Counted from the first letter of the whole stretch, positions 1 to 62,291 are shown. The stretch: DNA of 63,327 bases, filler included, from Stramenopiles sp. TOSAG23-6 (GCA_900128565.1; 9 parts of 9 records of this genome joined end to end with filler, not necessarily neighbours in it), one strand, 5' to 3'. Notes: generated by a model from the letters alone, not told the origin. Made by a program: numbers and translations.

Positions 1-87
1 TTGTGAAAAAATAGTACAAGATTTTTGTTATTAGGTACAAAATTTCGTACGAAAAAAAATTAGGTAAAAAAAATAATGAAAACGTAC

Positions 88-783
88 ATTTACTAACGCT
101 TCTTTTTGAGCTAATGTTAGTTCATCCAACCGATTGTGATTTAAAATTACTTCAGGCTCTTGTACCATTGATACAGCCGCGGTCGGATTCCATTTCGCGT
201 GTTCTTTTCCCGTCCCTAGTTTAGCAACACAGATTAGATCTAGTTCTTGGCCCTGACGAATAGTTGCCAATTTGATGCCAATATCCTCTGCCTCGGATTC
301 TTCTTTAGAAGAGGCAAAATGAATCGGTTGAACTCTAGTCTTAATTAACTCTTCTCTTCCTGTTTGTTGATTGTATTCTGTCCATGGGCGAGGTATCAGG
401 TCCCTACTTGTAATATGAATACTCTGCCGTGGGTCACCTTTAGGCAGCTTGATCTTTAAGTCTATTATGACAGAACAATTCACACACCGATCTTCGCAAG
501 TACAATCACGCGCATAAAACATACCATTATTGATTCCATCCTGATGTCTCAAGGGAATAAATCCCAAACGATGAGCTAGAAACTCATCGTGCAATACAGT
601 ACTGTTTTTACGTACCTCTACCAGGTCAATCGCAAGTATAGGAGTCTCCGCAATCATAACACGGCGTAAGACGTTCGCTACACTTAAATCCGTTTCCGAG
701 AGGACAAATTTGATCATATCATCAGTTAACTCTAACACATCAATCTTTGGGAAGCGATGTTCAATTCCCTTATATTCCGTCAT
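88..783 (-). CDS. RPB3: RNA polymerase II subunit RPB3, exon 1 (3' part beyond window edge; family intron starts at 87)
   Basis: Motifs ANVLRRVMIAETPILAID, VLHDEFLAHRLGFIPL, C-x-C-xxx-C-xx-C Zn site, GTGKEHAKW. Confidence 0.93.
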
Positions 784-992
784 TGTGTTACTATAACGGC
801 TGTATGAATTTCCCTATAATAATTAATTACACTACACTGACACATGCATGATGATGCTCTTCATGCGCATGAATCGGAATCGAAAATTGACCGACTACTG
901 GATTTCGTGTTTTCAACGTTGAAACCGTTAAATGTACGAAAGGCTTTCTTGTGGTGGTGTTTTACATACTCTAGCTAGAAAAGGTAGGTACT

Positions 993-994
<2 letters not shown>

Positions 995-1035
<41 letters not shown>
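995..1035. repeat. (AG)n microsatellite between divergent genes
   Basis: About 20 AG units seen directly. Confidence 0.95.
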
Positions 1036-1038
<3 letters not shown>

Positions 1039-1115
1039 TAGTTTATATATTTCTTAAAAGGAAAGGTACATTCTGCCATACATTATGAAGATATATTATT
1101 ACTTTTACTTATAAA

Positions 1116-3977
1116 ATGCGCCACATTCCCCTTCCAGTATGGGAGAATCCTCCACCAACAAAAAAGCAATTACTATTGGCCGAGACGTTTGAAATTGTAC
1201 GAAAGCATGGGTCTACGACAGGACTAGACTTATTGGATGAGGCATATGGAGGAGGTTTATCTCCAATTTCTAAAAGCAATCAAAAGAAAAGGACACAACG
1301 NAAAAAGTCAAAATCATCGAAATTTAAGATGCCTGAAAATACGGGTGATATGTTTGCGCATACAGTTATAGGAGATACTGGAGAAACAGGGGGTAAAAAT
1401 CAAGTACTAGCTACGCCAAAGTTATTTTTGGAACAGCACAAAGGAGAAAGTCAACCAGCTAAACTCGATAACCTTATTTTTACTGGATTTACGGACCATG
1501 ACTTACGCAATAAAGCAGAGGCAGGTTTAGAGGATGTCAGTGCATTTTTAAATCTTCCTGGAGGTGGGATAGTACCTGCAGCAAAAGATGCCCTCCTCGC
1601 ATTGGCGGAACCACGTAAAAAAATGCTGTTAGATAAAATTAAATTCGAGAATAATAGAAATTGTGACTTTGTGAAACTACAACAAGACTTTTATCGTGTT
1701 AATCAAAACATCAAAAATATGGATAAAGACATTAAATTAATGGCAAAAGCACACAAATCTAGTGAAAAAAAGCGTGCAAGAAAGATTCGTCAAGAGGATC
1801 GATTTCTTGAAGTTAAATATGGTGTGACTTCTCCAACTCTTGACAAATATAGATTAAAGATGAAAAAACAAAGAAATAAAAAGGCAGAGGCAAAAACAAA
1901 ACGATTAAAAAAATTAGAAGCGATTGACAATGGAGAAAAAGAAGACAATAGTGCCAGTTTGGGAGGTACAAAAAAAGAGAAGCGAGAAAGAATGCAGCGT
2001 CAAAGAGAAGAACGAGAAAGAAAAGCAAGGTATCAAAGAAAACTTCGAAGGAAACAACGTCGTAATGAAAGTTACGCTACTAAATCATTTAGAAGTGCAG
2101 ATTCTTTATATAGCAAGCAAAAGAAACAAATCGCGACAGCAATAGCTTTGCGGAAAGAGAAAGATGACACGTTTAAGCGTAACGAAATACTCCGAAAGCA
2201 CGGTGGTGGTGGAGGGAGTAAACAGGATTTGTTGTCTTCACAAATGAGCAAAAACCAGTCAAGAATAGGAAGGACGATGGAACATTATTATATGTACCAC
2301 CGCAATTTGACGGATGCTGCAGTAACAATTCAGAGAAAATATAGAAAAGCTGCGCGAATAGCATATTGGAAAAGACATGCGTGGCAATCAAAGGCCGCGA
2401 AAACAATTCAGAGATTTGCAAGAGGAGGATTGACTAGAACTATGGTAGCTCGTTGGTGGGCGCGTCGCAATTACCTTGTCTGCAAGATGCAAGCTATAAT
2501 GCGAGGATACTTTGGTCGCGTGAAATATGATATTGTACGTAAAAGAGAGTATAACGCGGCAGTGACTATACAACGATGTACTAGAGGTTGGTTGGGAAGA
2601 TGTAATTGGGATTTAGCTCAAATGACAAAGGCATGTACCGATATACAACGCATATGGAGAGGCGGAAGTAGATTATGTGGCCGTGCTCTGGCGGATAAGT
2701 TGTGGTTAAATGGACATGTTTTAAAGATGCAACGCGTCGGTAGAAAATTTATACACGGTCGGGTAGGTGTGAAAAGAATTCATAAAGAAATGAATGATGC
2801 CGTGGTTGCAATTCAACGATGTTTTCGTGGTTGGATGGCAAATAATACAAGAAATCGTCTATTACGAAACAGATCAGTTTTACAGCGAGTACTCCAAGTA
2901 AATATTCTACGTTCTGAAGCTGTTTATGTCGACGATGTTGTTACTGAGCTAAAACGCGATCTCGAAAATGCGGAGCTTGGTGATCGATTAAAAAGTATAG
3001 AAAAAGAGGAGGCACATGGCCGCCGAGATTGTTATCAAATTGAATTTGATTATCAAGCGTTCATTCGTGAAAAACGGCGACTTTCGCCTAGAGCAATTGC
3101 ACAGGGATTTGTAAAAAATATTGACAAAAATATCGATACGTATAGAGAAAAAATTACAAAATCTAAACTAAAGATGCTTTTCGATATTGGTAGAGAATCC
3201 AGACGTTTACACGCACTCCAAAAGAAAGCTGATAAATTATTTCAAAAATATAAATTTGAACAAGAAATATATAGTAAATGGCGCGAGGAAGATATGGATG
3301 TGCATTGGCAAAACGTTGCAGTTTTTAAGAAACAAAATCGTGAGAAAAAGGCCCGAATGGCTATCTCAGAACAAAAACGCAAATGGTCAATTCGATTCTA
3401 CACAGAAAATGGAAAACCTGATAGAAAACGAAGATATGGAAGACCTTGGCATTCTTCAGTATATGCAGATCCCAACAAATTGCGATATACAATGACAGGG
3501 GAGTTCTGGACAGATTTTTCATCATATGAAAATCTGATTAAACTCCAAAATACACTTAATGCATACCAATATTACGGTGCATCAATGAAACCATTAATGG
3601 ATGAATGGAATGGATTTGAGAAAAGTTTGGCTGTAGCTGGTACAGAAGCTGACAAAGAAAGGATAGAAAAGGAGAGAAGATTACGAAGAAAAGAACTCAT
3701 AGAGGAATTAAGACAAAAAGAAATCGAAAAAGAAATGCGAGAAGATGAAAAAGAGAAAAAAGCTGCTGAAGAGAGACAGAAACGTCGCGAGGAAAGACAA
3801 CTCACAAGATCGCAAATTGCAGAGGAAGCAAAGAAATTATACAAACCTAGGAGCCAGGTATGGAATTTATTGGATGATTTGGACATGGGGAAAAATGACT
3901 TACAAACTGAAATGAGAATCGAACGTGAGGAAGAAATTAGAAAATCCTTTAAGAAAAAATCTAAAGAAGAAGAATAA
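1116..3977 (+). CDS. IQ-motif (calmodulin-binding) coiled-coil protein, intronless
   Basis: 953-aa ORF with repeated IQxxxRG motifs (TIQRFARG, KMQAIMRG, TIQRCTRG, DIQRIWRG, AIQRCFRG). Confidence 0.8.
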   Translation: MRHIPLPVWENPPPTKKQLLLAETFEIVRKHGSTTGLDLLDEAYGGGLSPISKSNQKKRTQXKKSKSSKFKMPENTGDMFAHTVIGDTGETGGKNQVLATPKLFLEQHKGESQPAKLDNLIFTGFTDHDLRNKAEAGLEDVSAFLNLPGGGIVPAAKDALLALAEPRKKMLLDKIKFENNRNCDFVKLQQDFYRVNQNIKNMDKDIKLMAKAHKSSEKKRARKIRQEDRFLEVKYGVTSPTLDKYRLKMKKQRNKKAEAKTKRLKKLEAIDNGEKEDNSASLGGTKKEKRERMQRQREERERKARYQRKLRRKQRRNESYATKSFRSADSLYSKQKKQIATAIALRKEKDDTFKRNEILRKHGGGGGSKQDLLSSQMSKNQSRIGRTMEHYYMYHRNLTDAAVTIQRKYRKAARIAYWKRHAWQSKAAKTIQRFARGGLTRTMVARWWARRNYLVCKMQAIMRGYFGRVKYDIVRKREYNAAVTIQRCTRGWLGRCNWDLAQMTKACTDIQRIWRGGSRLCGRALADKLWLNGHVLKMQRVGRKFIHGRVGVKRIHKEMNDAVVAIQRCFRGWMANNTRNRLLRNRSVLQRVLQVNILRSEAVYVDDVVTELKRDLENAELGDRLKSIEKEEAHGRRDCYQIEFDYQAFIREKRRLSPRAIAQGFVKNIDKNIDTYREKITKSKLKMLFDIGRESRRLHALQKKADKLFQKYKFEQEIYSKWREEDMDVHWQNVAVFKKQNREKKARMAISEQKRKWSIRFYTENGKPDRKRRYGRPWHSSVYADPNKLRYTMTGEFWTDFSSYENLIKLQNTLNAYQYYGASMKPLMDEWNGFEKSLAVAGTEADKERIEKERRLRRKELIEELRQKEIEKEMREDEKEKKAAEERQKRREERQLTRSQIAEEAKKLYKPRSQVWNLLDDLDMGKNDLQTEMRIEREEEIRKSFKKKSKEEE

Positions 3978-4063
3978 TGTTTATTACTGTGTTTAAAGAA
4001 TACGAAACAAATTTTAAATTTGATTAATTACATTTTATAAATGAAGAATAATTATATATCATT

Positions 4064-6342
4064 TTACTCTTCCATTTGTAAAGATAAAGTTCCCATAAAA
4101 TTAAGCCAAATCAATTTACACAAATCAGGGCTCCATTTCCCTTTTTCACCAACGACTTCCTCAAACTCAGACGATACATGTATTTTGGAAAAATATTTCA
4201 AAAAAACAATTCGTTAGGTACAAAATTTCGTACGAAAAAAACATTCGATTTTTTTNTGAAAAAAAAANTAAANCATACATCATTCCAAGGTATAAGATCG
4301 ACAATGTTACCTTTGTGTGGAACACCAATACAAGCACCAGAAGTTTTTGATATCATATTATTATGTTTCATTCGACCTCTCGCAACTGCAAGGTCACACA
4401 GCCCAGATAATTTCAAGATTCCATATTTTCGCATCAAGTTTGTAGCAACATCATCATTTTCTTCATTTTCTTCATCATCGACCAAATTTTCCTGGGCTTC
4501 ATCAACAGTAGAATGATCTTTTTCCCATTTTTCCTGATTCTCATCTTTTCCAAAATTGCCCCAAATAACCTTTTTGCTTTCATTACTATTTTTCAATGCT
4601 TCATTATTTCGATTTTTGCGACACCAGTTATACCATTTACGTTTGCGACGTTCCAACCACACGGTAATATTATGTCGTATTTTTTTTGGTTTTTTTTGTT
4701 TACTATTATTCGGATTATTACGCAATTTATCTACAGCAGATTTAAGCTTATCAGCTCTACTCGACCAAACCCTAGCATCTTTGGGAATTTCAATTTTCCT
4801 CTTTTTTCTATTTTCAAGGCATACATCTAAAGTTTTGCGAGCATCATCAGCAACTGACGAAGCAATACACGACGCAATACTTGAACCTTGAGCTACATTA
4901 CAACTATTGTTTTGACTATTTGAATCTGAACCTAAGTAACATTCAATTCGTAGAAGTGCCTCAGCAGCAGTCATGGCGACACATTTATCTACGTTTTGAC
5001 TTTTTTTTTGAATCTTTTTTTTGCTTCTTTGCTCTGCAGCCTTTTTAGCTTTACGTTCCCTTGACAGTCGATCTTTTTGTGATTTCATGACTGCTTTAAG
5101 GATGTCTTCTTGCTGGCGTAGTTGTTCCATCTGTAGCGTTTCAAAATGTGTCAAAGTTTCCAACCAATCAACACTTCCCTTTTTATCAAACAAATTTTGG
5201 TATTGTTCTGTTAGGAAGGCATTTTTCATATCGTGACGGTTAGCATGTTGCTTTAATGCACTTATATATTTTGTTTGTAATTGAGCAAGTTTTTTTTTAT
5301 CTTCATCTGTTCTACCAACGCCATCACTAGCAATGGCATACGCGTTGACTTTATAAACAGCTTCTAATTCTTCAGACATTTTTGTGTTATACGTTTGTAA
5401 AACTTTCTGGGTGTGTAATTTTAGTTTCCAAACAGCATGTATTTTGGAAAAATATTTGAAAAAAAAAAAACTTAAATTTGTTAGGTACGAAATTTCGTAC
5501 GAAAAAAAAATTCGAATTTGAAAAAAAATAAAACATACATCCTCTTTACCTCTAACTTCTTTAAGTCGGGTTTCGGTTTGTTTCATTTGAATTTGAAGGA
5601 TATCGTTTTGTCCATGTTTTTCATGAATGAGTTGTTGAGCAGATTGACCGGTTTTATCATTTTTTAGCCCTGTTAACTCTCTTTGGATAATGTGTTGTTG
5701 TTGGACTAGTTGCTGTTGTAGGATAAATTGTTGTTGTTGAAGCAGTTGTTGTTGTTGGACAAGTTGTTGTTTTTGAAGTAGTTTTTGATCTTGTTCGTGT
5801 TTTTCACGAATCTGCTGTTGAGCAGAACTAAGAACAGAACTATTATTCTTTTGCTCTAGTTGGACCTGTTGCTGTCTTTCAAGAAGTTGTTTTTGTTGTT
5901 GTTGAAGCATTTGTTGTTGTTGGAGGAGTTGTTGTTGAAGGAGTTGTCGCTGCTCAGCAAGGTGACGTTGTTTGACGAGGTTTTGAAACTCGACAAGTTG
6001 TTGTTGCTGTGTGAGTTGTTGTTGTTGCTGTTGGGCAAGTTGTTGTTGTTGGGTGAGTTGTTGTTGTTGGGTGAGTTGATGTTCCGGCGACTGTGCATTC
6101 GTATTAGAATTTGTAGATTCAACTATACTCGTAGACTCTGGTGACTGTTGCTGTTTGTTTTGCTTCATCAGTAGCGCTTGTTGTCCCTGCTGTGTATTAA
6201 TTGATTGTTGCTGTGGGTGAGAAGAATTGCTTTCACTTACAACTCGGGACCCCATTGTAAGAGCAGGAACAGTCTCATCCTTTCCTCCCTCCTTTCCAGG
6301 GTTGAGCTCTCCCAAGGTTTGATCACTTTTTTCTCCAGTCAT
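4064..6342 (-). CDS. Glutamine-rich coiled-coil protein of unknown function; introns 5437-5538 and 4178-4278 (both GT-AT)
   Basis: Poly-Q ORF; removing the two family introns gives KED|AVWKLK and PWND|VSSEFEE...MEE*; start codon choice is tentative. Confidence 0.7.
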
Positions 6343-6810
6343 TTTATAATGATATGTAACGCTGAATAAATAAATGTAGCCAAAAGTACACAAATCAATA
6401 AAGATAATCAGGACCAATACGCAATCGTTTGTTTTTTTTAGAATAGTGCTATAATATAGTAATGTTTTCACTGTAAAATTCACAAATAATTCTTTGATGA
6501 TGTCGTCGACGGCGACTGAGTCGGACTGACACGTCATCGATGAATTTTGATGACGCGCAGAAGAGGAAGCATGTTTGTCACAGTTTTTTTCGTGCCAACA
6601 AGCGTTTTTTTGTAGTGAATTTTGTACGTAAGAAAAAAGCCCTAACCCTCGCTTATTATTTTTTCTGTACGATACAATTATTGACCGACCACGCGAACGA
6701 ATAGTGAATAGCGTACCGCGAGATCGATGATAACCTTGTGCGCAAATTCATTTCGTTTGGATCTCTAAAAAAGGCAAAGACTAGGCTATATAGAATATAG
6801 AGAAACTACA

Positions 6811-7662
6811 ATGGACTTTGCAAGTTCGAACATGCTTATTGCATTGTTTACTTTCATAGCGTTGATTCTGGCATATTTCTTCTTTGGCAGTGGTGGTAGT
6901 AAGACGGAAGATTCTTCTAAGTCAAGACTTCAGGTTGCCGAGGAACGCGAACAGTTGCTCTCAAGAAGGTCAGCTATCGGTGTCAAAGAGAATGACGATG
7001 TTGCTACGGAATCGCAAAACAAAGATAACATGGTGGAAGCAGAAAAGTGTGCCAACAGTGAAGTGAATTCTGGTTTGATTTCCAAGGTTGTTTACAATGA
7101 ACCTTTTACAGTTTCCCCCGACACCGTCACCTTTAACTGTACCACTGACCGTATTCCAGGTACAAGTAGTGTAAAGCAATATGTTGAAGTAAAGAACAAC
7201 ACCCCAGAAAGGGCTGTATTTAAAGTTCGTACCAATAATCCAAAAAGGTATCTCGTAAAACCTTCTATCACTTTTGTAGGTAAGAACAGTTCAGCGAGAA
7301 TAGAAATCACTCTACGTGACAAGGAAATTGACCCGATTGTGAAGGATATGAATAACAAAAATGTAACCGAGATGAGTGTTAATGATAAATTTCTTCTACA
7401 ATGGATGACATTGGACGAAAAGTTTTACTACAATGACGCTTTTTTTGACCTAATAAAGGAAGCCACTTGGATCCAGAAAGCTCAGCGTTTGATTAAAGCT
7501 GTGTACGTTTTCATCATGAATTTCGATTTTTTTTTTATACGAAATTTTGTACCTAACGAAAAAAATCAAATTTTTGAAATATTTTTTCAGCAATACATAC
7601 CACGGGATGAACAGAAGCAAACCTTCAAGTTTAGTAAACTTCGAGTTAGATTTACAATTTAA
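6811..7662 (+). CDS. VAP-like MSP (major sperm protein) domain protein with N-terminal TM anchor; intron 7503-7598
   Basis: AVFKVRTNNPKRYLVKP, DKFLLQ and C-terminal KLRVRF MSP motifs. Confidence 0.85.
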   Translation: MDFASSNMLIALFTFIALILAYFFFGSGGSKTEDSSKSRLQVAEEREQLLSRRSAIGVKENDDVATESQNKDNMVEAEKCANSEVNSGLISKVVYNEPFTVSPDTVTFNCTTDRIPGTSSVKQYVEVKNNTPERAVFKVRTNNPKRYLVKPSITFVGKNSSARIEITLRDKEIDPIVKDMNNKNVTEMSVNDKFLLQWMTLDEKFYYNDAFFDLIKEATWIQKAQRLIKAVYVFIMNFDFFFIRNFVPNEKNQIFEIFFQQYIPRDEQKQTFKFSKLRVRFTI

Positions 7663-7778
7663 GAATGTGTGCGTATGGGTGGAAGTTCTTTTTTCATCCT
7701 ACTCGAAGATTCCGTCTTGTTTAATAAAATTCCAAAAAAAATAAACAAAAATTAGCATTGTAAGATTGAAATTTATAA

Positions 7779-8567
7779 TTAAAATTTATTATTCTTTTCT
7801 ATATACTCATTTGAGCATAATAGTTCCGAAAACCAAGTAGATAGTGCAGAAATAGTCATTAATGATTCTTCACCGGTTAATCGATTTCGTACTTCTACAC
7901 AACCATTCACCATTCCCTGAGATTGTATATCACGACCAACTACAACTACAACAGGATATCCAACTAATTCGGATTCAACAAGTTTTTGACCAAGTGACTC
8001 TTTCCATCTGTCATCTAGTACTACAGTACCATTGGTCAAAGTGCTATTTTTAATTGTATTAGTCCTATTCATAGTATTAAAATTTCGATGACAAAACTGC
8101 TTTTCTTGTATCTCAGTCAATTGTGTGGCAATGTGTTTGGCCTCATTTTTGAGATGTTTACTTGCCGAGACTACCAACGCAGAGTGAGGCGCAATTTCTA
8201 ATGGCCATACAATCCCTTCTTTTGTTCTTGTTTTTGTATAATTTGATGATGGAATACTTTCAATCAAAGCAGCAATAATTCTAGTTACACCTATACCATA
8301 ACAACCCATGAATCACGAATAAATATTTCAAAAATTTGTTTTTTTTGTTAGGTACAAAATCTTCAAAGAAAAAAAAATTAAAAAATAAATACATTCGAAA
8401 TTGAAATAACTAATGAAAACGAACATCTCCAGAGGCATTTTCTTACCATTTTTATCAGCAAAATTTGCACCAAGCAACTTTGAATACTTATTACCTAAAT
8501 AAAAAATTTGACCAACTTCGATACCTTTGGACTCTTCTAATTGTCCTGTTTCACATACAGGACAACC
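7779..8567 (-). CDS. proS: Prolyl-tRNA synthetase (bacterial/organellar type), C-terminal part; intron 8308-8424
   Basis: GIEVGQIFYLGNKYS, spliced PLE-MGCYGIGVTR (motif 3), WPLEIAP, anticodon-binding domain LDDR...G.K...ELVGYP. Confidence 0.9.
8308..8424 (-). mobile_element. Family intron, GT...AT (GTTCGT...GATTCAT)
   Basis: Removal of exactly 117 nt yields conserved PLEMGCYGIG; no AG at the junction. Confidence 0.85.
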
Positions 8568-8634
8568 ATGTATTTTGTGAAAATATTTCAAAAAAAAAAC
8601 TTAAATTTGTTAGGTACAAAATTTCGTACGAAAA

Positions 8635-8734
8635 NNNNNNNNNNNNNNNNNNNNNNNNNNNNNNNNNNNNNNNNNNNNTTAATTAATTAANNNNNNNNNN
8701 NNNNNNNNNNNNNNNNNNNNNNNNNNNNNNNNNN
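8635..8734. other. Artificial contig linker (N-run/TTAATTAATTAA/N-run); also at ~17366-17465, 26095-26194, 34815-34914, 43533-43632, 52238-52337, 60931-61030, 62130-62229
   Basis: Identical stop-in-all-frames spacer flanked by Ns. Confidence 0.97.
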
Positions 8735-8777
8735 TTTTTTTTTTTTTTTAAAATTTTTTAAAAAAAATTTTTTTTTT

Positions 8778-8814
<37 letters not shown>

Positions 8815-8904: not shown

Positions 8905-9682
8905 GTAAATGCGCTTTTAACTCATATGAGGCTTTAGACCTGAATAGTCAATGCTTATATGAACAAAATTCAGATCAAATCGCATCACTTTTTCCTGATT
9001 TAGCAGCAGATGTACATTTTAATTTTATGAATTTCAATTTTTTTTTTTGGTTTTCGTACGAAATTTCGTACCTAACAAAAAAACAATATTTTTTTTTTTT
9101 TTTTTTTTTTTTTAGAGTATGTATATATATTTCTATATATTATTTCATCCCATCTATTTCAATTTGAATTTTTTTTCATACAACAAATTATATATCTAAC
9201 AAATATCAATTATGAAATATGTTTCATAATTTATTTAAGCTCAAAAGAAGAATTAGACAAATGTATGTTTTTTTTTTTTTTTGTATGAATTTTTTTTCGT
9301 ACGAAATTTTGTACCTAACGATTTTTTTTAGTTTTTTTTTGAAATATTTTTCTACAATACATTTGCATTAGGTGCCGAAGGATCTACAATCAATGTACAT
9401 TTTTAATCATTACAAAATTTTAAATTTTCATACGAAATTTTGTACCTAACAAAAAAATTTAAAAAAAATATTTTCAAACAAGAAATGAAAATTTTAAATT
9501 TTCATACGAAATTTTGTACCTAACAAAAAAATTAAAAAAAATATTTTCAAACAAGAAATGAAAATACAACTCCTGAGACACGAAATGTGTATGACGTCAC
9601 TAGCTATATAGGAGCACGTGCCGATACTAATGGACTTTTAGCAGCAGATCAAGGGTTAGGGTTATTAGGACCATTTGGTTAA
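8905..9682 (+). CDS. 3' fragment of a hypothetical gene with several small exons
   Basis: Short open exons (KCAFNSYEAL..., SKEELDK, FALGAEGSTIN, ...QGLGLLGPFG*) separated by family introns; not all junctions resolved. Confidence 0.45.
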
Positions 9683-10899: not shown

Positions 10900-11621
10900 A
10901 TGTATTTTGGAAAAATATTTAAAAAAAAAAAAAAATGTTAGGTACAAAATTTACCATAAAAAATAAAATCATACAAAAAAAAATATAAATAAAACATACA
11001 CACCAAGATTAGATATATAATTTCCTTGTTGAATACGATTTAATGTTCTGCGCACTGATATTTTCTTCTGTTTTATGCGTTCATACCAATGTTTAGGCGA
11101 TTCATGTATTTTGGAAAAATATTTCAAAAAAAAAAATAAAATTCGTTAGGTACAACATTTCGTACGAAAAAAAATTAATACAAAAAAAAAAAAACATACA
11201 TTCTCTTCTTTTTCAGGTACTTGTATCTCATCAATATGTAATGTCAGTGAATTAATCAACCTAACAACAGGTATAATATGATTATGTAGTATATTTCGAG
11301 CTCGTTCATCTGAGATTCTGAATTCCTTGGTCAGCTGATATGATGTCTCTCAAAACAGTTTCGTTCCAATTATTTATTGACAGTTTCAAAAAAAGAAAAA
11401 AAAAAATATTGTGTGGCCAATCAAAATCTCTCGATCATATACTCAAGTTTTTATCGTGTATTCATTCAAGTCCTACACAGAAATCCAATTAAAACCCCAC
11501 ATTTTTTTACTTTATTCTCATTGTATACATTATTTGTTTTCTGTGAAATAGATACAGTATATCTCTTTCATACTAGTGTATGATGTACTAACATTTTGTT
11601 GTACTACTATATACAAAAAGT

Positions 11622-25890: not shown

Positions 25891-26399
25891 ATGTATTTTT
25901 GGAAAAATATTTCAAAAAAAATGTAAAAAAAAATTGTTAGGTACAAAATTTTTATAAAAAACCAAAAAAAAAAAACGATTTTTTTTTTTTTTGGTTTAAA
26001 AAAAAAAAAAAAAAAAAAAATTTTTTTTTTTTTTTAAAAAATAAAATTTTTTTTTAAAAATAAAAAAAAAAAAAAAAAAAATCGAAATGGGTAANNNNNN
26101 NNNNNNNNNNNNNNNNNNNNNNNNNNNNNNNNNNNNNNTTAATTAATTAANNNNNNNNNNNNNNNNNNNNNNNNNNNNNNNNNNNNNNNNNNNNGTTTCC
26201 AATTTCATTGTTAGACCTGTATGAAATATTGATTGGTTCGTAAGACGGACTCAAGTCAATGCGGAAATTTTCGATTTTGTGGCCTGACTCGACCGTTGAC
26301 ATTTTTAATTTTAACGTAACTGTTGCTACAGTTTGTTTGATAACTACTTAAGCTGCTTACTACTTGGGAGTATCCTGTGCTTCACGCGACCACATCGCC

Positions 26400-34763: not shown

Positions 34764-35049
34764 ACGTATTTTGGAAAAATATTTGAAAAAAAAATCGTTA
34801 GGTACAAAATTTCGNNNNNNNNNNNNNNNNNNNNNNNNNNNNNNNNNNNNNNNNNNNNTTAATTAATTAANNNNNNNNNNNNNNNNNNNNNNNNNNNNNN
34901 NNNNNNNNNNNNNNTTTTTATTTATTTTGGAAAAATTTTTAAAAATTTTTTTTTTTGGTTAGTAAAAAAAAAAAAAAAAATTGTTAGGTACAAAATTTCG
35001 TACGAAAAAAAAAAAGTAGATAAATTTTTTTTAAAAAAATAAAAGATAC

Positions 35050-35712: not shown

Positions 35713-36058
35713 GCTAAATAACTATACGTTGGTATACATGTTCTCATACAATACGATACTAAGAGTAACGAATTTACTTGTCTATATAATTGTGCTTCTT
35801 GTTGTTGAACAAGAAAAAAAATGATCGTGTGAGTTTGATTTGATGACTTGATTTGACTTCTTCTTGATGTTCCTCTTTTTTTCCTCGCGCGATTTTTCTT
35901 TCGAAAAAAAATGAAGAATTGAATTAGGTACAAAAAATAGGTACGGAATCATGCGGAAGGTTTCCTTATTTTGGTACGAAATTTTGTACCTAAATTTGAA
36001 TTCTGAATAACTTGAAATAAATTGTGCATTATATTGTATTGTATTGTATTGTATTATA

Positions 36059-50050: not shown

Positions 50051-52113
50051 TTAGTTACCAAGTAACCCCGTTTCTGTTATGAAATATTTCATTGAATTTG
50101 TCGGAGGTATTAAAAAATCTCCGTGTGAGTAGTGGTACACCATATCACACTTATGGGTTAATCGTTCGCATTCAAATGAACATTCATTATTAGGGTTAGG
50201 GTTATTAGAATCATCATTAGGGTTAGGGTTATGAGAATCATGTTTGATTTTCATTGCATTTCGTTTTCGCTTCTTACGGCGCATATTTGGTATATAGTTA
50301 CCAAAATAGGGAGAAAAATGTTTTAATTTTTCATGTTGTACAGTAGGAGGTACAACTGTTTGTAATAAATTTGAAATTGGAGAAAATATCAATTTTTTCT
50401 GAAATCCTACATTTTTTTTGGACAAAATTTCGTGTTTTGTATTTTTTGTATTTTTTACATTTTTTGTATTTTCATCAAAAAAAAAAAGATTTTTTTTCTT
50501 CCAATTTTGTACAATATTGTGCACAATGAGTACATATATTTTGCATCTCATCTGATATAATTTTTGATATTTTTGGATTTTCATGATTATTTGATACATT
50601 TTGTAATTTAGTGATGAAAATATCAGCTCCAAATCCAAGAAAATTTAATTTTTTTTTTTCGTGTTTTTCGTGTTTTTCGTGTTTTTCTTCTCTGTTTCGT
50701 GTTTTTATAATTGTATTCAATGTATTGTTAGTATACCATGTATTTAATCGTCTATACTCTACAAACATATCTTTACTCTTGTTTGTATTCCTTACTTTTT
50801 GTTTTCCATTTTTATTTTCAAAATTTTGTTTCATTGCAAAAATATCGAAACATTGACACGTGTCACTTTGTGTATCACAAATAAAATTAGTATTGTCCTG
50901 ATTATTGTCTAAAATTTTTTTTTTTTTTTTTTTTGAACATTTAATTTTTTTTTTCTCGTTTTTTTCATTCATTTTTTCATCTTTTCGTTTTCGACGTAAT
51001 CGATTGTTTTCTAATCTTTGAAGTTGTTTTATATGTTTTTCGTGTTGATCAGATACTTTTTTAGCTTCAACGCAATTTGGACAAAACCAAAAATTGTGTA
51101 AAAATATTTTAATTTTTTTTTTTTTTTTTGGTTAGGTACAAATATTTCATATATATTTTTTTTTTGGAAGGGGGTTAGGGTTAGGGTTAGGGTTAGGTAC
51201 AGTATTCAGTATGTTAATGTAAACGTACAATGTATTCGCATTTTTGGTGTTATTTTAGTAATACATTGAGGTAAGCAAAAAGAGTGATATACATGAATTG
51301 TGAAAAAATATTTTAAAAAAATTCGTTAGGTACAAAATTTCGTACGAAAAATAAATTCGATTTTTTTTTTTTTTTTTTCGGTAAAATAAAAAAAAAATAA
51401 AACATACATGATTACAATTAGTACAAGTCAATAGTTTTGAAGTGTGATTTTCAGTCGTAGATCCACAACCCTATATTGCAAAAAATATTAAATTGTTTTT
51501 TTGTTAGGTACAAAATTTCGTATGAAAAAAAAAAAAAAAATTGAATAAAAAAAAATTTCAAAAGCAAATGTAAAAAATATTTTTAAAAAAATATTTGTTT
51601 TGTTTTCTATGAAAATTTCGTATGAAAACCAAAAAAAAAAAATTGTAGAAAAAATTGAATAATGAAAATGTACATAACAACAGCCTGAATGGATTTTTTT
51701 TTGTTTTTCATTTTTTTCATTTTTTTGAGAATGTGCCATGTTTCTCTCTATATAATCATTATCATTTGTAATACACTCTTGATTTTGTAAAGATTTTAGT
51801 GATGTTTTTTTCAATGTATTTTGAAAAATATTTAAAAAAAAAAACTAAATTTGTTAGGTACAAAATTTCGTACGAAAAATTAAAAAAAAAAAAAAAAACA
51901 CATACATGAATCTTTTTCTTGTTTTTGTTGTTTTTGTTGTTTTTCATATTGTTGATATTCTTGTTGTTGTTGATATTGTTGTTGTAATAGCCTATCTCTC
52001 CACGAATTCCATTGTTTTAAACAATCATGTGCCGCAGATACCAACATTTTTTCAAATGCTGTATTAATACCAGATTTTTCAAATGGAGGAAATACAAACG
52101 ATTTCGTGTTTTT
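50051..52113 (-). CDS. PHD-finger protein (5' truncated); introns 51814-51905, 51471-51673, 51293-51407, 51089-51228; probable homopolymer frameshift near 50480
   Basis: Spliced CY|GC...LLTCTNCNH|VYHSFC...H|WFCPNC gives a complete C4HC3 PHD. Confidence 0.8.
51089..51228 (-). mobile_element. Family intron, GT...TT, with internal (CCCTAA)n and a duplicated branch motif
   Basis: T|GG restores the PHD WFCPNC motif. Confidence 0.85.
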
Positions 52114-52390
52114 ATGTATTTTGGAAAAATATTTCAAAATTTTTTTTTTTGGTTAGTAAAAAAAAAAAAAAAATTGTTAGGTACAAAATTTCGTACGAAA
52201 AAAAAAAAGAAGATAAATTTTTTTTAAAAAAATAAAANNNNNNNNNNNNNNNNNNNNNNNNNNNNNNNNNNNNNNNNNNNNTTAATTAATTAANNNNNNN
52301 NNNNNNNNNNNNNNNNNNNNNNNNNNNNNNNNNNNNNAATTTCGTACGAAAAAAAAATCGATTTTTTTGTTAAAAAAAAATAAAACATAC

Positions 52391-53526: not shown

Positions 53527-56101
53527 ATGAAGCATAAAAGAAGGAACTCAACCCATAAAAGGCTGGAATATTCTATGCGTAACCAACGACGCTCAAGTAA
53601 AGGCTTTGGGTACGTAAATAAGAATGAACTAGTTGTAGATAATGAAACTCAAATATCCATGCTGAGAAATGAGCAGCGTTTGTACAAACAACGTAAAGAC
53701 GTAGCAAAACGCAAAGCGTTACAAAAAGAACGGACCCGCTTGCGTGCCCAGAATGCATTTAAAAATGCTACAAAATCGACGCTATGGCAAAGAATTTTCG
53801 GTCGTGGTGCTTCGGCTCGTCAAAAGCAAAAGATGAATAGTAAACGATATACTAAAACTTGGAGAGAGCAATATATCCAACCCTTTTTCAAGGATTTAAA
53901 GATTTCACAAGAGCACGAAAAGGAGATATTTCAAGACGTGCAATGCTGTGTTGGAACAGATCTTGATTGGAAGCATGACCAAGTCAGGAAAATCTTTGAT
54001 GATACTCTTTATTCTTTACCTCAATGGATGCGAAGATATGAATCTGGTAAGAATACAGCAAGTCTTGCAATATCAAAGGAAATATCCGATGTTATTAGTG
54101 CAAATGGAAAACATGTTTCCATGGAATCAAAGTTGCCTGGACTTTCGACGTATAATTTTCAGGAGTCTTTTTTCCTTCTTCTGAGAGAATCTGATGCACT
54201 TTCTGACAATTGTTTGAGTGAGTACAGTGACGACGAAACTGATTCTATTAATCATCAAGATCATCAAGAAAAATCAAAACATAAAACAAATCATTTAACA
54301 TCACCAATTTTAGGGAAAGCATTGAGTGGTTGTATCGTTGTGTCCCATTTACTTCCGAGAGAAACTCGTGAAGAAAGGCCTTCTTGGAGTGCCCCCGATG
54401 TACCAACGTCTCTAAAAGGCAAACTTGAATATGTACATTTTCATCATTTTTTTTGAATTTCGATTTTTTTTCGTACTAAATTTTGTACCTAACGATTGTT
54501 TTTACGAAAAATAAAATATTTTTGTACAATGCATGATAGCAATTTGTTCATGGAAGTGTGGGAAGTAGTCTGGTGGAGTAGATCAAATAAGTTTAGTAGA
54601 GATATTTCTATACCTAATATGGGAACGTGGGAAAATGTTTTGTTATGGTATATCGAAGCAGCCGGGAAAAGACGTGTACGTTTGCAATTTCAAAATTTTA
54701 ATTTATTTTTTCGTACGAAAGTTTGTACCTAATGATTTTTTTTCGAAATATTTTTCACAATACGTGGTGTTGCTGCTGTATTAACACTTGCTGGTATACA
54801 CGATATACCATGGTGGTTACAACACCGACCTGAACCAGATTGTTGTTTATATAATTCTGTTCATTTCAAAGAACCATTAGATGTACATCATAAAGAATCA
54901 GTCGATTCACAGTATAAAGTTCCATTAGATGTACATCATAAAGAATCATTAGATATACATCATCATAAAGAGCATCCTTTTATAAGCTTATGTGATGGTG
55001 CAGCTGAAATTGAAGCTGTCTCTCAATTTCGAGTACGACCACTAGCTATTGGTGGTTTACAACAGTTTTATCAAGATTCAGAAAAACCTCGTCGAACCGG
55101 CCAGAGTGTTATTCCACATGACGATGTTATTTCAATAGCGGCTACAGCCATGCGTGACTACTCGAATTATAAAGAAAAGAAACGGAAAAGAACCTCAAAT
55201 GTAAATATTGATTTGAAAAAAATATTAAAAGGTAAAGTTAGAGTTGACAAGAAGTACCGTATTTCTCCAATTGATGTTGCCCATGTATGTTTTCATCATT
55301 TTTTTCAATTTGTTTTCGTCGTAAATTTTGTACCTAACGACTTTTTAAAACCAAACAAAAATATTTTTCACAGTATATGTTTGGATTCTTTTGTATACAA
55401 TACCTGCAACTGCATCTGGTTCTAGCATTGGTATTCAGAACAAAATCAAAATAAAAACGAAAGAATCAAAAGACTCAAAATCTTCTTTTAGTAAAGAAAT
55501 CCAAAACAAATTTAGAAAAAGATCTAAGAATAGTTATCAATCGTATTTTTTAGAAAAAGCTGCAGCTCATTTAAGTTTGTCAGAGTTACATAATAATATT
55601 TTGAATACTAATAAAAAAAACACCAAAGATCTAGAACAAAAAAACCGAGGTTATTCAAGAAAAATCAATAGCAACGAGTACAAGGATATCTTTAATAGCT
55701 TATCAAGTTTGAAATCTCAGAAAAAGAGTGAAATTAGTAATCTTAAAAAATCTCGAAACAATTCGACCACAATGTTGAACACAAGTTGGATAAGAGCGTC
55801 GAAACGCGAAGTTGAAATAAAACCTTTGACTTCTCAAAAATCCCCCAAAAGACAAAAACAAAGACGTGTATTATCAGTACCACGTGTGTTGTCTGAATGT
55901 ATGCCGTCTGTTTCCACAAATCTAGTATCTGTTTCACAAGGCGGAGGTGTTGATTGTTTTGTGAGTAGATCTAAAAATGATAGAAAACATTTAAAACCAC
56001 TGGAAAGTTGGAAGGATGGTATTTCACAAATGGTTTCAGAAAGAATTGGAAGAGCAGATAGATCAGCTGATATTAGAGAAGACACATATAGTACTGTATA
56101 A
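53527..56101 (+). CDS. Hypothetical protein; introns 54433-54534 (AT), 54676-54765 (GT), 55285-55378 (AT)
   Basis: Four exons join into one open frame only with these junctions. Confidence 0.65.
54676..54765 (+). mobile_element. Family intron flanked by a GT duplication (GT...GT)
   Basis: AGAC-GT|GTACGT...CAATAC-GT|GGTGTT; excision restores the frame (KRR|GVAAVL). Confidence 0.75.
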
Positions 56102-56244
56102 AAAAAAAGCCAGAATAAATAAATATTGTAAATACTATAGTGATTGTTTTTTTATTATAACATAAAATCAACAACTTTTCAAGGTACGATTTCTCTCACG
56201 ATATAAGTACATCGTGTTACATCGTGTACACACCATTTGATTTT

Positions 56245-57924
56245 TTATAAAACCTTTTTGTTAAAGCCTTGTAAAATCGAACCTAGGAATCGATCAATAA
56301 TACCAATTACAGTAAACACACCACCAATGATTGCACAGAAATTAGTAATAAAATGATATATTGGTTTTTTCGTGAACGAGGTGACTACAGTCATTGGAGA
56401 TAAGTCATATTGAAACATAATAGAAGGTGGCGTTCCATCATCTTCTTTGTGTTCACTCGAAAAGGCAGCATATATTGTGAAAAAAAATTGAAAAAAAAAT
56501 CATTAGGTACAAAATTTCGTATGAAAAAACATTTAGGTAAACAATTCATGAGGAAAACATACATAACTATAGTAATGCATTTTGCGATCATCTTCTTCAG
56601 TAGAACTATCAAAATGAAAAGATTTACTCACCACCTTTAAATAATGCACAAACGTATAACTATTTCGTGTTGTGTGAAATTCTCGATCATCAAGTTTATC
56701 ACTGCGTAAATCATTTTTCATTACTGACGGAAGTTGACGATACTTTTTTTTATATATATTGTGAAACAATATTTCAAAAAAAAAAAAATTAGGTACAAAT
56801 TTTTTTTTTTTTCGTAAAAAAAAAAAAAATCAAATTCGTGATGAAAACGTATACCTAGCATTGATTGGATCTCCAAAATTCAACTTGTGTACAGTATGTG
56901 AAGAATTTACCATTCCATTTTCTGTATCATATCGAGGAGATACAAGATTCATATGAAAGTTACCTGGTACACGTTTCACCAAGAGCCTGCCAGAAACATT
57001 GCAACCTTCATGGCCGACTACATCAAGTTCACTGTGTCCATTTGCCACATCTTCTTCATGCAACTGACGCTTTTTCAAATCTGCATGATCTTTAAATTCT
57101 TTCCTTGAGAGAGTTTCATATGCTTTGGTAATGAGACCAGTGACAGTTCGTTCACCATGATATGCTTCGAGAGGAGACAAACCACCACCTGTGAAAATGT
57201 AAATGGTAGGATATCCACGAATATAATGTTTCTGACAAAGTTGTTTTTCTTCAACACAGTTCACCTTCGCAAATGTGATTGGAGCAATGTGTTCATGTTT
57301 ACCCATAAGCTTAGCGGCAGCTTTCTCCCAAACAGGCTCGAGACGTTGGCACCATATACACCAAGGAGCATAGAAATTCATCATGATAACCTGATCGCTA
57401 TTATCCCTGACATAATCTTCGAAAGTTTCCCCAGTAACTGGATCACTATGTACCTCACCCGAGGCATCTTCTTGCAATATTTGCTCCAACGCTGCGAGTT
57501 CTTTTTGGGCAGTTTCATCGTGTTCTTCGGGCTCGATAGAACTACTCTTTATTTTTCCCAAGTGCCTTCCTCTGTGATCAACACGAACCTTTTTAATATT
57601 TTGGTGAATATCGTGCTTTCGTTCACCTGTAACATCCGAAATATCAACACTGGCAAATTCGCAAGGCAAGTCATGTACAGTAATATTAAAGTTGATCGAT
57701 AACATACCACTATGTGAGTCAGAAGAAACCTCGCCCCGTTCGAGAACAATGTCAGTTGTCGTGGTAACTTTCAAAAAAGACTGAAGCTCAAGACCGAAGA
57801 GTAAAGTCATTATTAAAATACCAAAGAAGGATAGACAGGCTCCAGAATAGGTAGACACATACAAGTCATCAGGAACTTTTTTGTATAAATCCCATCTACG
57901 AATAAAATTTCCAAGGAACCCCAT
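56245..57924 (-). CDS. PDI-C-type protein: Erv41/Erv46 (ERGIC) with embedded thioredoxin domain; introns ~56754-56852 and 56470-56562
   Basis: DLYKKVP, INFNIT..LPC...VD..D..G, FYAPWCIWC, EGC.V.G.L.VKRVPGNFH, FQYDLSPM, CAIIGGVFTV. Confidence 0.92.
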
Positions 57925-58225
57925 AATAAGTATTGATCGAGATCAGAGGTAACACTGTGTTTGTTTCGCTTGAAAGTTTAAACATTGGATTCGAAAAAAA
58001 GCAAATTTTAGCACAATTAGGGTTAGGGTTAGGGGATAATTGGGGAAACATACAATTATTAATGTGCTATAAATTTACAAAACTTCAAAAATATTTAAAA
58101 ATAATAATATCATCAGATAATATATAGGGGGAATATATTTATACAAAAAACTAAATAGCCACTACATCTGAATCATTGGAATTTCACCAGTTAGTCTGCT
58201 GGACGAAAAAAGTCCTACTAATTGA

Positions 58226-60919: not shown

Positions 60920-61036
60920 ATTTGACCTAANNNNNNNNNNNNNNNNNNNNNNNNNNNNNNNNNNNNNNNNNNNNTTAATTAATTAANNNNNNNNNNNNNN
61001 NNNNNNNNNNNNNNNNNNNNNNNNNNNNNNTTTAAT

Positions 61037-61435
61037 GTGACAGATATTGGAACTACAATAAAAGTATATCGGGCAAGTCTCTCTCGCTGGTTTGTCGCCT
61101 ATATTACTGATTTTGATGTTCGAGATGGTGGTACACATAGACTTAGATATGAAAAATTAGGCACGAATAGTAATGAAGTATGGATGCATATGCAGAATAA
61201 TAAACATGTTGTAATTCAATCATCTGATGAGTTAAAGGGAGATCAACGAATGCGTCGAAGTAGGGGTTTTTCGAACATTTCCCTGAAGCACCACACATCA
61301 GAAGTAAATGATATCTCTAAAAAATCACTCGGTGTTTTACCACCAGCACTGGTGGAAGCATATGGCTTTGCATTTGGGCGTGAAAAGGGCACAAAAACTG
61401 TTGTTAAAGAAAAGGAGCCATCATTTTATTGTTAG
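61037..61435 (+). CDS. 3' fragment of a protein with a Tudor-like domain
   Basis: IGTTIKVY.....WF.A.ITDFD....HRLRYE pattern; 5' end in gap. Confidence 0.5.
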   Translation: MTDIGTTIKVYRASLSRWFVAYITDFDVRDGGTHRLRYEKLGTNSNEVWMHMQNNKHVVIQSSDELKGDQRMRRSRGFSNISLKHHTSEVNDISKKSLGVLPPALVEAYGFAFGREKGTKTVVKEKEPSFYC

Positions 61436-62129
61436 TTTTATCATGAAGCTACACGCATTTGCCGCAACACTTCGCTCGTGTTGAGCATCGAGGACAATAT
61501 TTCTTGCAATTTGACTAGATAAATTCGCATTCTTTGCTGCTGACATTGCAATAAAAGCAGTTTGTTTTATACATGTTAATTTTTTGTTTAAATATTCTAC
61601 AGAAATCACTTGGCATGCTTCATCAATTGAACGTATTGCAGAATAAACAGATGAAGCTGCGACGAACGCTGCTGTAGCAATAATTCCTTTTTTTGCTTCC
61701 TCATTTTTTTTCATTTTTAAAATTTTTTCACAATCATTCATTTGTTCATGTATTTTGGAAAAATATTTCGATTTTGTTTTCGTTAGGTACAAAATTTTTA
61801 TAAAAAAATAAAAATTGAAAAAAAAAAAAAACATACATGAGCAGCAACGGCAACAAAATCACCACTGAAACCACAATTAAATTTACACTTAAAATTTGCA
61901 AAACCTCCTAACAATCTTGCGATACCACGACCCTGTTTTTTTTTGGTTGGTGATTTTACCTTTTTCGGTGTAATTTTACATTTTTTTTGTTTTCGACATG
62001 TATTGTGAAACAATATTTTTTTTAGTATAATAAAATTTGTTAGGTACGGAATTTCGTATGAAAAAAATATTTAGATAAAAAATTGTTAAAAAATTCAATT
62101 TTGAAAAGGTACACTCTTCCAATGAATTG
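61421..62129 (-). CDS. Hypothetical protein, 3' fragment; introns 61998-62112, 61748-61836
   Basis: Exons join in frame (EE|CRKQ, AAH|EQMN). Confidence 0.55.
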
Positions 62130-62291
62130 NNNNNNNNNNNNNNNNNNNNNNNNNNNNNNNNNNNNNNNNNNNNTTAATTAATTAANNNNNNNNNNNNNNN
62201 NNNNNNNNNNNNNNNNNNNNNNNNNNNNNAATTTCGTACGAAAAAAAAATTTCAAAAAAAAATTCAAATTTAAAAATAAAATAAAACGTAT

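Follow-up and report, generated by a model that had tools for sequence, protein, structure and literature searches.

A family of probable introners with GT...AT ends in a stramenopile genome

Introduction

Introner families that bring their own 5' splice site, while the 3' splice site stems from the target-site duplication, were described in 2022 (PMC9860276). A 2025 follow-up lists AG and AC as accepted 3' sites and kept families with unfamiliar sites only if these had transcript support (PMC12130899). Other 3' sites are known from Saccharomyces cerevisiae without Prp18, where the major spliceosome uses non-YAG sites with CAU and UAU being the best non-G ones; their use is helped by an upstream U tract and possibly by pairing with the first intron base (PMC10711555). 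Among the non-canonical termini of U12-type introns in five model species, GT-AT and AT-AT account for 7 and 12 of 66 cases, respectively, and GT-AT was productive in experiments (PMC1557818). Here, we report on a family of short repeated elements within a stretch of 63,327 bases (the window, i.e., the whole stretch of DNA analysed), which interrupt its genes like introns that begin with GT and end mostly in AT.

The elements resemble the introners of PMC9860276 in that they are multi-copy, short, AT-rich and found in sense within genes, in that the element brings the 5' site, and in that the last intron bases equal the flanking direct repeat such that removal leaves the mRNA length unchanged. 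They differ in that a 4-bp duplication supplies AG there, while a 2-bp repeat supplies AT here. With Prp18-deficient yeast they share CAU and UAU, which end 27 and 6, i.e., 33 of 42 copies in the window, but the low-level, error-type use in a mutant (PMC10711555) contrasts with what would be the normal and dominant site of a wild organism. The introner elements of Amoebophrya (Farhat et al. 2021, PMC7789003) are likewise repeated, transposon-like introns of a marine protist with direct and inverted border repeats, and most introns of that organism have non-GT-AG ends, too. They show, however, no dinucleotide signature, and their repeats are longer, i.e., 8-20 nt (inverted) and 3-5 nt (direct), compared to 4 nt and 2 nt along with a GT...YAT signature here. 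Nonconventional introns of euglenids and hemistasiid diplonemids (PMC12621601; PMC4770533) also combine non-GT-AG ends with some complementarity of the ends, but their borders are variable and their pairing is extensive, whereas borders are uniform and pairing is weak in our case. That is, the elements do not show the variable borders with extensive end pairing (8-20 nt) of the euglenid, diplonemid or Amoebophrya type. In tunicate non-canonical introns the 5' GT is lost as well. The respective introns of Fritillaria and other tunicates (PMC13326754; bioRxiv 2025.08.15.670264) belong to an animal lineage, while here 41 of 42 copies keep the 5' GT and the deviation is confined to the last base. 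We found no report of an intron family dominated by GT-AT in the literature on introners, non-canonical introns and MAST single-cell genomics, supplementary tables not included.

Element family and splice-site ends

A family profile was built from 16 full-length copies and used for an nhmmer search with a cut-off of E<0.01. We observe 55 non-overlapping matches in 63 kb, 19 on the plus and 36 on the minus strand. Two matches share one intron with an internal tandem duplication, i.e., the matches represent 54 elements, which agrees well with the about 55 copies of one element announced in an earlier note on this DNA. For 42 elements both ends are resolved (counts given out of 42 refer to these). 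Another 10 are interrupted by an N run or the end of a contig, or could be resolved at one end only, and 2 are internal fragments located outside of reading frames. Lengths range from 89 to 211 nt with a median of 107. Compared over profile columns, pairs of copies have a median identity of 0.74 and reach 0.93 at most. The copies are spread over at least 20 different reading frames; that is, similar copies are found at unrelated gene positions, as in introners.

Three blocks are conserved. The 5' end follows GTATGTTTT. The second block, CGTACGAAATTTTGTACCTAAC, comprises a central palindrome plus a branch-like motif with a conservation of at least 0.9 per column. Last comes the 3' block, GAAATATTTTTCCAAAATACAT, which ends in ...AAAATAC and is preceded by a T-rich tract. 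The near-perfect palindrome in the element centre (profile positions ~40-60) is formed by GTACGAAA and TTTCGTAC (or TTTTGTAC, with G-U in RNA; the right arm is also found as TTTYGTAC) and folds into a 6-bp hairpin immediately 5' of the CTAAC motif. The branch-like motif is present in 40 of 42 copies (CTAAC 34, CTAAT 4, GTAAC or TTAAC 2) at a distance of 33-51 nt from the 3' end, with 89 nt in one copy. Both 5' site and branch motif are conserved to at least 0.9 even in divergent copies.

With regard to the intron ends, 41 copies begin with GT and a single one with AT; the first six bases read GTATGT in 24, GTACGT in 6 and GTATCT in 2. The last two bases are AT in 35 copies, AG in 4, TT in 2 and GT in 1, i.e., 38 of 42 end without AG; among the terminal triplets CAT (27), TAT (6) and TAG (3) prevail. 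A pyrimidine is found at position -3 in 40 copies and an A at position -2 in 39. In 28 cases AT terminates the upstream exon, and in 21 the downstream exon begins with G. When five copies with only the 3' end resolved are added, the tally becomes AT 39, AG 4, TT 2 and GT 2 (n=47). The dominance of AT reported by the earlier note (about 38 AT, 7 AG, 3 TT and 2 GT of some 50 acceptors) is thus reproduced, with fewer AG copies in our count. Compared to U2-type GT-AG introns, the elements show the 5' GT consensus as well as CTRAY plus pyrimidine tract but, in most copies, lack the terminal AG. They are probably U2-type because of the GTATGT/GTACGT 5' site, the CTAAC motif at a yeast-like distance and the T-rich tract that follows it.

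One further copy, AT/GTATGT...ACAT/GG (slashes mark intron borders), is found in frame within the metagenome contig MDTB01012742.1, which belongs to a separate public assembly. Since it also ends in AT, this end is no quirk of a single assembly.

Reading frames and excised length

For each copy we determined the longest stop-free frame that reaches the GT and the longest one that starts after the last intron base. Flanks were considered confident if both frames span at least 30 codons and are twice as long as the next best frame. Removal of the element is in frame for 35 of 42 copies and for 25 of the 28 copies with confident flanks (P=1.2e-9 against 1/3, where about 9 are expected by chance), given a median of 63 codons for the shorter flanking frame. 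When shifting the acceptor by +1 or -1, only 3 or 0 of these 28 copies are in frame. Clear frames on both flanks are observed for 28 copies in sense but for only 2 in antisense, both of which also pass in sense. Such a bias points to selection acting on the RNA and speaks against excision from DNA; the elements would be removed from the transcript. The statement that the introns lie in sense orientation is hence well founded, with precise removal restoring the genes.

The excised length can be fixed to the residue by homologues or domain profiles for five introns. In the gene of a bacterial-type prolyl-tRNA synthetase (ProRS; divergent copy 8308-8424, minus strand, AT/GTTCGT...TCAT/G) the upstream exon aligns with 5znj_A up to residue 435, such that its end extrapolates to 436, and the downstream exon aligns from 438; the split codon AT/G provides Met 437. 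Around the CDPK intron 33819-33907 (minus strand, AT/GTATGT...ACAT/G) the exons abut at a split Cys codon on 3k21_A, 4jwq_A and 3o4y_A. Two introns interrupt the CFAP47-like gene on the plus strand: at 44698-44812 (AA/GTATGT...ACAT/G) the exons join seamlessly, with neither gap nor overlap, in 9 of 13 homologues, and at 45963-46084 (AT/GTATGT...ACAT/A) they do so in all 14 homologues for which both exon ends are aligned. Finally, the exon downstream of 22118-22261 (minus strand, TT/GTATGT...CACAGTATAT/G) covers positions 6-31 of the 31 positions of the WW profile, and the split codon T/GG encodes a Trp just before, which we take to be the first conserved Trp of the profile. Thus, the view that conserved motifs fix the excision length holds for ProRS, CDPK and CFAP47. 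The Bfr1-like intron at 20704-20806 (minus strand, AT/GTATGT...ACAT/T), listed along with them in the earlier note, is in frame with confident flanks, and the four intervals named there (8308-8424, 33819-33907, 20704-20806, 44698-44812) are exact.

Usage of AG

Conventional GT-AG splicing at nearby AGs was considered and rejected. In the ProRS gene there is no AG between branch motif and exon, and the first AG downstream would remove the GCYGI core. The rule to use the first AG at least 15 nt past the branch A leaves an open frame in only 5 of the 21 confident in-frame copies without AG end. Nine AT-ending copies carry an AG 9-18 nt past the branch motif. For 47100-47210 (plus strand, AT/GTATGT...ATAT/A, AG at 18 nt) and 47846-47968 (plus strand, AT/GTATGT...ACAT/C), both in frame at AT, reading by hand shows that an AG past the branch motif would give a stop codon. 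The copies 22118-22261 and 55285-55378 (plus strand, AT/GTATGT...CACAGTATAT/G, in frame), both with confident flanks, end in CACAG-TATAT, i.e., a CAG 5 nt upstream is bypassed, the use of which would break the frame and, for the former, also drop the junction Trp of the WW domain. Sequence and homology thus leave the AT-ending introns at these sites without a usable AG.

The conclusion that AG recognition has largely been abandoned goes too far, though. All four AG-ending copies are in frame with confident flanks, and 38384-38492 (minus strand; 5' GTATCT), whose 3' end has mutated to AAAT, needs a TAG located 4 nt further downstream to be in frame. Therefore, AG seems still usable as 3' site in this organism, and a machinery that accepts YAT as well as YAG fits better.

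Alternative explanations

In 26 of 42 copies AT is found on both sides, i.e., ahead of the GT as well as at the intron end (Fisher P=0.03), so that GT...AT and AT...AC introns would result in the same mRNA for these, and neither frame nor length can discriminate; the register is thus decided by copies without upstream AT. According to the shifted reading, introns would start as ATGTATGT and end in ATAC, i.e., 2 nt further upstream on both sides, and the downstream AT would be kept in the mRNA. AT-AC is a known intron class, AT directly precedes the GT in 28 of 42 copies, and AC is found at positions -4/-3 in 25. However, 14 of 42 copies would have to start with one of eight other dinucleotides (GT, TT, AA, AG, AC, GG, TG or CA), while the unshifted register yields GT plus a good U1/U6-type consensus in 41, and ATGTATGT is unlike the U12-type ATATCC. 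At 44698 the unshifted register gives ...MKK/VP, where the nine abutting homologues show K (7), R (1) or Q (1) at the Lys position, compared to an Asn predicted from AT-AC. The four AG-ending copies carry their AG exactly where the others have AT, with 19825-19941 (minus strand, AC/GTATGT...ATAG/T, in frame with confident flanks) lacking any flanking repeat that would permit a shift. The flanks of 36286-36443 (minus strand, AA/GTACGT...ACAT/C, in frame with confident flanks), i.e., AA before and C after, likewise permit the unshifted register only. Assuming one rule for the whole family, GT...AT is, as judged from sequence, the sole register compatible with all copies, which renders the AT...AC reading very unlikely. 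The arguments given earlier for a GT start, namely AG in place of AT and exon ends in AA at 44698 and 36443, are borne out here.

The same GT...AT introns could be spliced by a transformed minor (U12-type) spliceosome, in which position is the main factor in selecting the 3' site. The non-canonical termini recognised for this type include GT-AT and AT-AT (PMC1557818), and the mix of GT-AT, GT-AG and one or two AT-AT introns would fit. Such U12-type introns (PMC1557818; bioRxiv 10.1101/2020.10.12.336362) share the terminal pairs and the tolerance of AG at that position with our elements but make up a few per cent of a rare class. They carry ATCC in the 5' site and have their branch site at a distance of ~10-12 nt to the 3' end, both of which are absent here. 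Physarum provides an example of an altered system, with a 5' site of [AG]TATC[CT]TTT and an snRNA that co-evolved with the branch motif (bioRxiv 10.1101/2020.10.12.336362). While the family consensus GTATGTTTT is one base from GTATCTTTT and the two GTATCT copies come close, ATCC is observed at +3 to +6 in 0/42 copies, i.e., [AG]TATCCTT is not found, and +5 is mostly G. A branch site hidden in the highly conserved 3' block would explain the ignored upstream AGs including the CAG at -5, but that block does not match TCCTTAAC in a manual comparison. In U12-type introns the branch site is located roughly 10-26 nt from the 3' end, and the only strong branch-like motif of the elements, the CTAAC type, is with 33-89 nt far beyond this range. 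We consider this explanation unlikely. RNA removal independent of terminal dinucleotides, where pairing of the ends unites the splice sites as in the nonconventional introns of euglenids and some diplonemids or the introners of Amoebophrya, is a highly improbable account. The two ends can pair over 4 nt (GUAU/AUAC), or over as many as ~7 bp if a bulge is allowed, and in some minimum-energy folds this stem closes the intron and leaves a 2-nt AU overhang. Such systems are known to be transposon-associated in Amoebophrya (PMC7789003) and extensively paired at the intron ends in diplonemids (PMC12621601). Still, the expected number of pairs is only 2.37 compared to 1.64 with the last 12 nt shuffled (25 of 42 copies exceed the control), the borders are uniform instead of variable, and divergent copies retain a classic 5' site plus branch motif with a conservation of at least 0.9. 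Extremely improbable, finally, is that the elements are not spliced at all, i.e., that they are excised from DNA like internal eliminated sequences of ciliates, reside in dead gene copies or reflect an assembly artefact of single-cell amplified DNA. Short AT-rich elements with inverted ends and bracketed by 2-bp direct repeats do resemble excised germline sequences, and the window is made up of short draft contigs that contain Ns, many of these contigs breaking in the repeat. On the other hand, ciliate-type excision should be independent of orientation, and the strict sense orientation (28 vs. 2) is unexpected for it; stop codons are standard, splice-type signals are conserved, and the flanking frames are long and intact. 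The same structure recurs in the independent assembly MDTB01012742.1, and a 2015 DNA data set as well as several later seawater data sets share sequence words.

Proposed mechanism

We thus regard an introner family that is spliced by a U2-type spliceosome accepting YAT as 3' site as the probable explanation. The elements would be short, non-autonomous, transposon-derived spliceosomal introns of an AT-rich marine stramenopile. Each supplies what looks like a yeast-like U2-type 5' site (GTATGT or GTACGT), and the bracket AT/GT...AC-AT/ can be read as the duplication of a 2-bp target site or as a strong preference for AT targets. Splicing would remove the element together with the downstream AT, i.e., the intron spans from GT to YAT, such that the mRNA keeps one AT and the original frame. 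In the second step the major spliceosome would dock YAU as readily as YAG, where A(-2) is kept and U(-1) instead of G is placed opposite the 5' G(+1). The precedent of Prp18-deficient yeast leads to the proposal that the 3' site selection of this lineage takes YAU as well as YAG; a relaxed or altered second-step proofreading within the Prp18/Slu7/Prp22/Prp8 network probably permits this. CTAAC would serve as the branch point.

As to a possible origin by transposition, the AT...AT bracket and the 4-nt inverted ends hint weakly at a 2-bp duplication. Two fragments without splice signals lie outside of frames, which suits a mobile element that decays where splicing does not preserve its copies. 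Domain matches of the window genes reveal no transposase in the window.

Several observations speak against this explanation or parts of it. Only 2 of the 16 copies that lack AT at one border have matching dinucleotides, i.e., about as many as by chance, the terminal inverted repeat GTAT/ATAC comprises just 4 nt, and no empty site, i.e., a locus without the element, was seen, with a single related contig found. The homology test of the register concerns one residue in one gene (44698), and the joint occurrence of GT-AT, GT-AG and AT-AT also corresponds to what the minor spliceosome tolerates. One or two copies start with ATACGT in register (42397, 56754), which the G(+1)-U(-1) model does not predict; 56754-56854 is in frame either with an AT start or when both ends are moved upstream by 2 nt to give GT...TAT, and the protein is the same. 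With the AT end, the frame is not kept in three of the 28 confident copies (7503-7598, 38384-38492, 56754-56854), the first being in frame there only if the last exon has 20 codons. Moreover, protein searches with the CFAP47-like and RCC1 exons found no transcript-derived protein or gene model across informative junctions: there was no match at 165-525 aa for the CFAP47-like exon and none above 50% identity for the RCC1 exon. A search of representative proteins provided homologues of at most 37% identity, which were used for the junction tests, and no model of this locus.

A more far-reaching scenario joins several of these points and is to be seen as tentative, being somewhat doubtful as a whole. 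Therein, YAU and not YAG would be the principal 3' site of the major spliceosome in an abundant, free-living marine stramenopile lineage, caused by a lost or altered second-step fidelity factor (Prp18/Slu7/Prp22/Prp8 network). The relaxed rule would have let an AT-duplicating transposon fill most genes as perfectly spliced introns, hidden from standard gene prediction.

Individual copies

The ends of the remaining copies are as follows, where strands are given as + or - and complete copies come first. The most frequent form, AT/GTATGT...ACAT, is in frame with confident flanks at 5437-5538 (-), 11104-11199 (-) and 61748-61836 (-), each followed by G, at 19485-19609 (-) and 51814-51905 (-), followed by T, and at 37102-37235 (-), followed by A. 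It is also in frame at 33595-33701 (-, followed by A) within the CDPK EF-hand region, while the exons around 9263-9362 (+, followed by T) are too short for a frame call. Variation of the 5' site is found in 4178-4278 (-, AT/GTATGN...ACAT/G) and 25482-25585 (-, AT/GTACGT...ACAT/G), both in frame, and in 13638-13732 (+, AT/GTATGC...ACAT/G) and 54433-54534 (+, AT/GTACAT...GCAT/G), both in frame with confident flanks. With AT/GTATGT at the 5' end, the 3' end is TCAT/G in 51293-51407 (-, in frame) and ATAT/G in 47372-47484 (+) as well as in 56470-56562 (-) of the ERGIC/thioredoxin gene, the latter two in frame with confident flanks. It is GCAT/A in the CDPK copy 34242-34348 (-), for which an AG 3 nt upstream would keep the frame, too.

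Other exon ends precede the GT in 10900-10999 of the RCC1-repeat gene (-, GT/GTATGT...ACAT/A, in frame, confident), in 7503-7598 of the MSP-domain gene (+, GT/GTACGT...ACAT/A), which has a CAG 8 nt upstream, and in the divergent copy 43061-43151 (-, CA/GTATGA...GCAT/A, in frame). Canonical AG ends are shown, besides 19825-19941, by 25642-25740 (-, GG/GTATGG...ATAG/T), by the long copy 51471-51673 (-, AT/GTACAT...ATAG/G) and by the CAG-ending copy 42184-42299 (+, TG/GTACGT...ACAG/G) with TTAGGG-type repeats inside, all in frame with confident flanks. TT ends are found in 37731-37857 (-, AT/GTATGT...ACTT/T, in frame, confident) and in the divergent copy 34645-34742 (-, TT/GTACGT...ATTT/A, no frame call), and a GT end in 54676-54765 (+, GT/GTACGT...ACGT/G, in frame), where GT also precedes the donor. 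Of the copies that start with AT in register, 42397-42607 (+, AG/ATACGT...ACAT/G) is in frame with a downstream frame of 26 codons, and the odd copy 56754-56854 (-) reads ATACGT...ATAT. The copy 34920-35049 (-) starts with GTATCT and finishes with AAAT, which is 5 nt away from the contig end, and 61998-62112 (-, ...ACAT/G) has a doubtful 5' end GTACCT.

The copy 43645-43751 (+) is located at the start of contig 6. The first 12 bases of this contig and the 5' half of the copy (43633-43700) are identical to 20750-20818, which overlaps the copy 20704-20806, while the 3' halves and downstream exons of the two copies differ; 43645-43751 is probably an assembly join within the repeat. In general, many contigs end within an element copy, as is to be expected from an assembler at dispersed repeats.

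Among the elements with one end, the 5' part 1-87 (-, AT/GTACGT) follows the RPB3 exon and its 3' part lies beyond the window. Further 5' parts are 9012-9080 (+, AT/GTACAT) without assigned 3' end, 37518-37626 (-, AT/GTACGT), which is cut by the N run 37378-37517, and 52338-52390 (-, AT/GTATGT) at a contig end. The 5' part was lost at contig ends for 8568-8634 (-, ...ACAT/G) in the ProRS gene, 34764-34814 (-, CGT-ending) and 52114-52237 (-, ...ACAT/A), whereas 25891-26094 (-, ...ACAT/G) is a 3' part that continues into a contig end. Neither a 3' end could be assigned to 9395-9570 (+), whose branch-motif block is tandemly duplicated, and the divergent 20376-20539 (-) has GTTTTA as 5' end and ...TCAT as 3' end. 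The two internal fragments without a place in a frame are 6585-6635 (+, profile 13-64), which lacks splice signals and lies between divergent genes, and 35966-36019 (+, profile 33-86) on the strand opposite to its neighbouring genes.

Internal tandem duplications of the central block are seen in 9395-9570 (+), where a ~74-nt unit with the CATACGAAATTTTGTACCTAAC block is present twice, in 51471-51673 (-) and in 22118-22261 (-). In addition, runs of 2-4 units of a telomere-type repeat (CCCTAA/TTAGGG) occur inside introns and between genes, namely at 51139-51200 (-), 42190-42215 (+), 39060-39090 (+), 13740-13790 (+) and 6636-6650 (+), as well as at ~2160-2300 (-) of the metagenome contig with the extra copy. 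The branch-like CCTAAC is part of this repeat, and at 51139-51200 the motif directly continues into three repeat units. Searching viral contigs with the element core gave no match. One 33-nt core match in a contig of a Bacteroidales genome bin (6177-6209, minus strand) was rejected as chance given 596 Gb searched, since it comes with neither 5' site nor 3' block.

Genomic context and source organism

The window consists of nine contigs of decreasing length (8.6 kb to 1.1 kb) that were joined artificially and thus represents more than one locus. Contigs are separated by N44-TTAATTAATTAA-N44 linkers with a stop in all six frames (8635-8734, 17366-17465, 26095-26194, 34815-34914, 43533-43632, 52238-52337, 60931-61030, 62130-62229), i.e., genes on either side of a linker are no genomic neighbours. 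G+C content across the window ranges from 0.27 to 0.37. It harbours eukaryotic genes with RPB3, IQ, LRR, RCC1, WW, Sel1, MSP and BAH assignments, along with the CDPK EF-hand tail, the bacterial-type ProRS, CFAP47 and the ERGIC/thioredoxin protein; the genes are closed by standard stop codons. Rfam and tRNA scans of the window gave no match to RNA genes, including snRNA genes.

The top match of the RPB3 exon is the EukProt record GSMAST32.ASY1.ANO1.2567.1, followed by records with 72% and 68% identity and then by oomycetes at ~45%. From these relatives the source organism is identified as a stramenopile, and the name of the closest record suggests an affinity to the MAST-3 group. This is in accordance with the stramenopile-like genome presumed before, given that oomycetes (45%) are the best relatives with a name and that the name of the closest record is of the MAST type. 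Five seawater metatranscriptome runs share 8-16% of the words of one contig, where such sharing is silent on expression, habitat and splicing.

Introns outside of the element family were sought in the window as a guide to the general 3' rule of the organism, and none was clear. The two candidate frame breaks at 45468-45715 (+) and 50475-50644 (-) lie within lysine-rich, homopolymer-rich stretches that show neither a family copy nor splice signals. They resemble frameshifts due to homopolymers or low complexity and, instead of being introns, most likely stem from indels in sequencing or assembly; one further gap falls between genes. The 2350-codon open frame at 26352-33401 (+) contains no family intron and has no Pfam match, which is unusual since most long genes of the window are interrupted about once per kb.

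Conclusions

Existing annotation does not seem to capture these introns. The public RPB3 gene model GSMAST32.ASY1.ANO1.2567.1 is identical to window positions 1-813 (minus strand) where aligned, but reads through the element, i.e., it ends in ...ALVNVRFHYFFYLIFFRTKF with the run-on ...VRFHYFFYLIFFRTKF. Therefore, the intron class was evidently not modelled there. The model also lacks two internal stretches that are kept by three homologues in our comparison (P0002, P0003, P0008; the model itself being P0001), and these two deletions are probably false GT-AG introns. In a paper on marine stramenopile single-cell genomes (PMC5778133) the word 'intron' appears twice, at least once with regard to exon-intron boundaries in gene prediction, while 'splice' and 'non-canonical' are absent; the MAST papers PMC8163842 and PMC12614181 do not contain the word 'intron'.

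The AG at the intron end is among the most constant signals in eukaryotic genes. Gene finders that require it will mis-annotate genomes of this kind, which may bias both the protein catalogues and the estimated completeness of these uncultured grazers. If our explanation holds, a wild GT...YAT family would be a natural experiment on the docking of spliceosomal 3' sites, directly comparable to the use of CAU and UAU that has been seen only in yeast prp18 mutants (PMC10711555). It would further extend the introner model, as the dinucleotide copied by a transposon need not be AG under a permissive host spliceosome, and would thereby link the splicing fidelity of the host with the invasion of its genes by introns.

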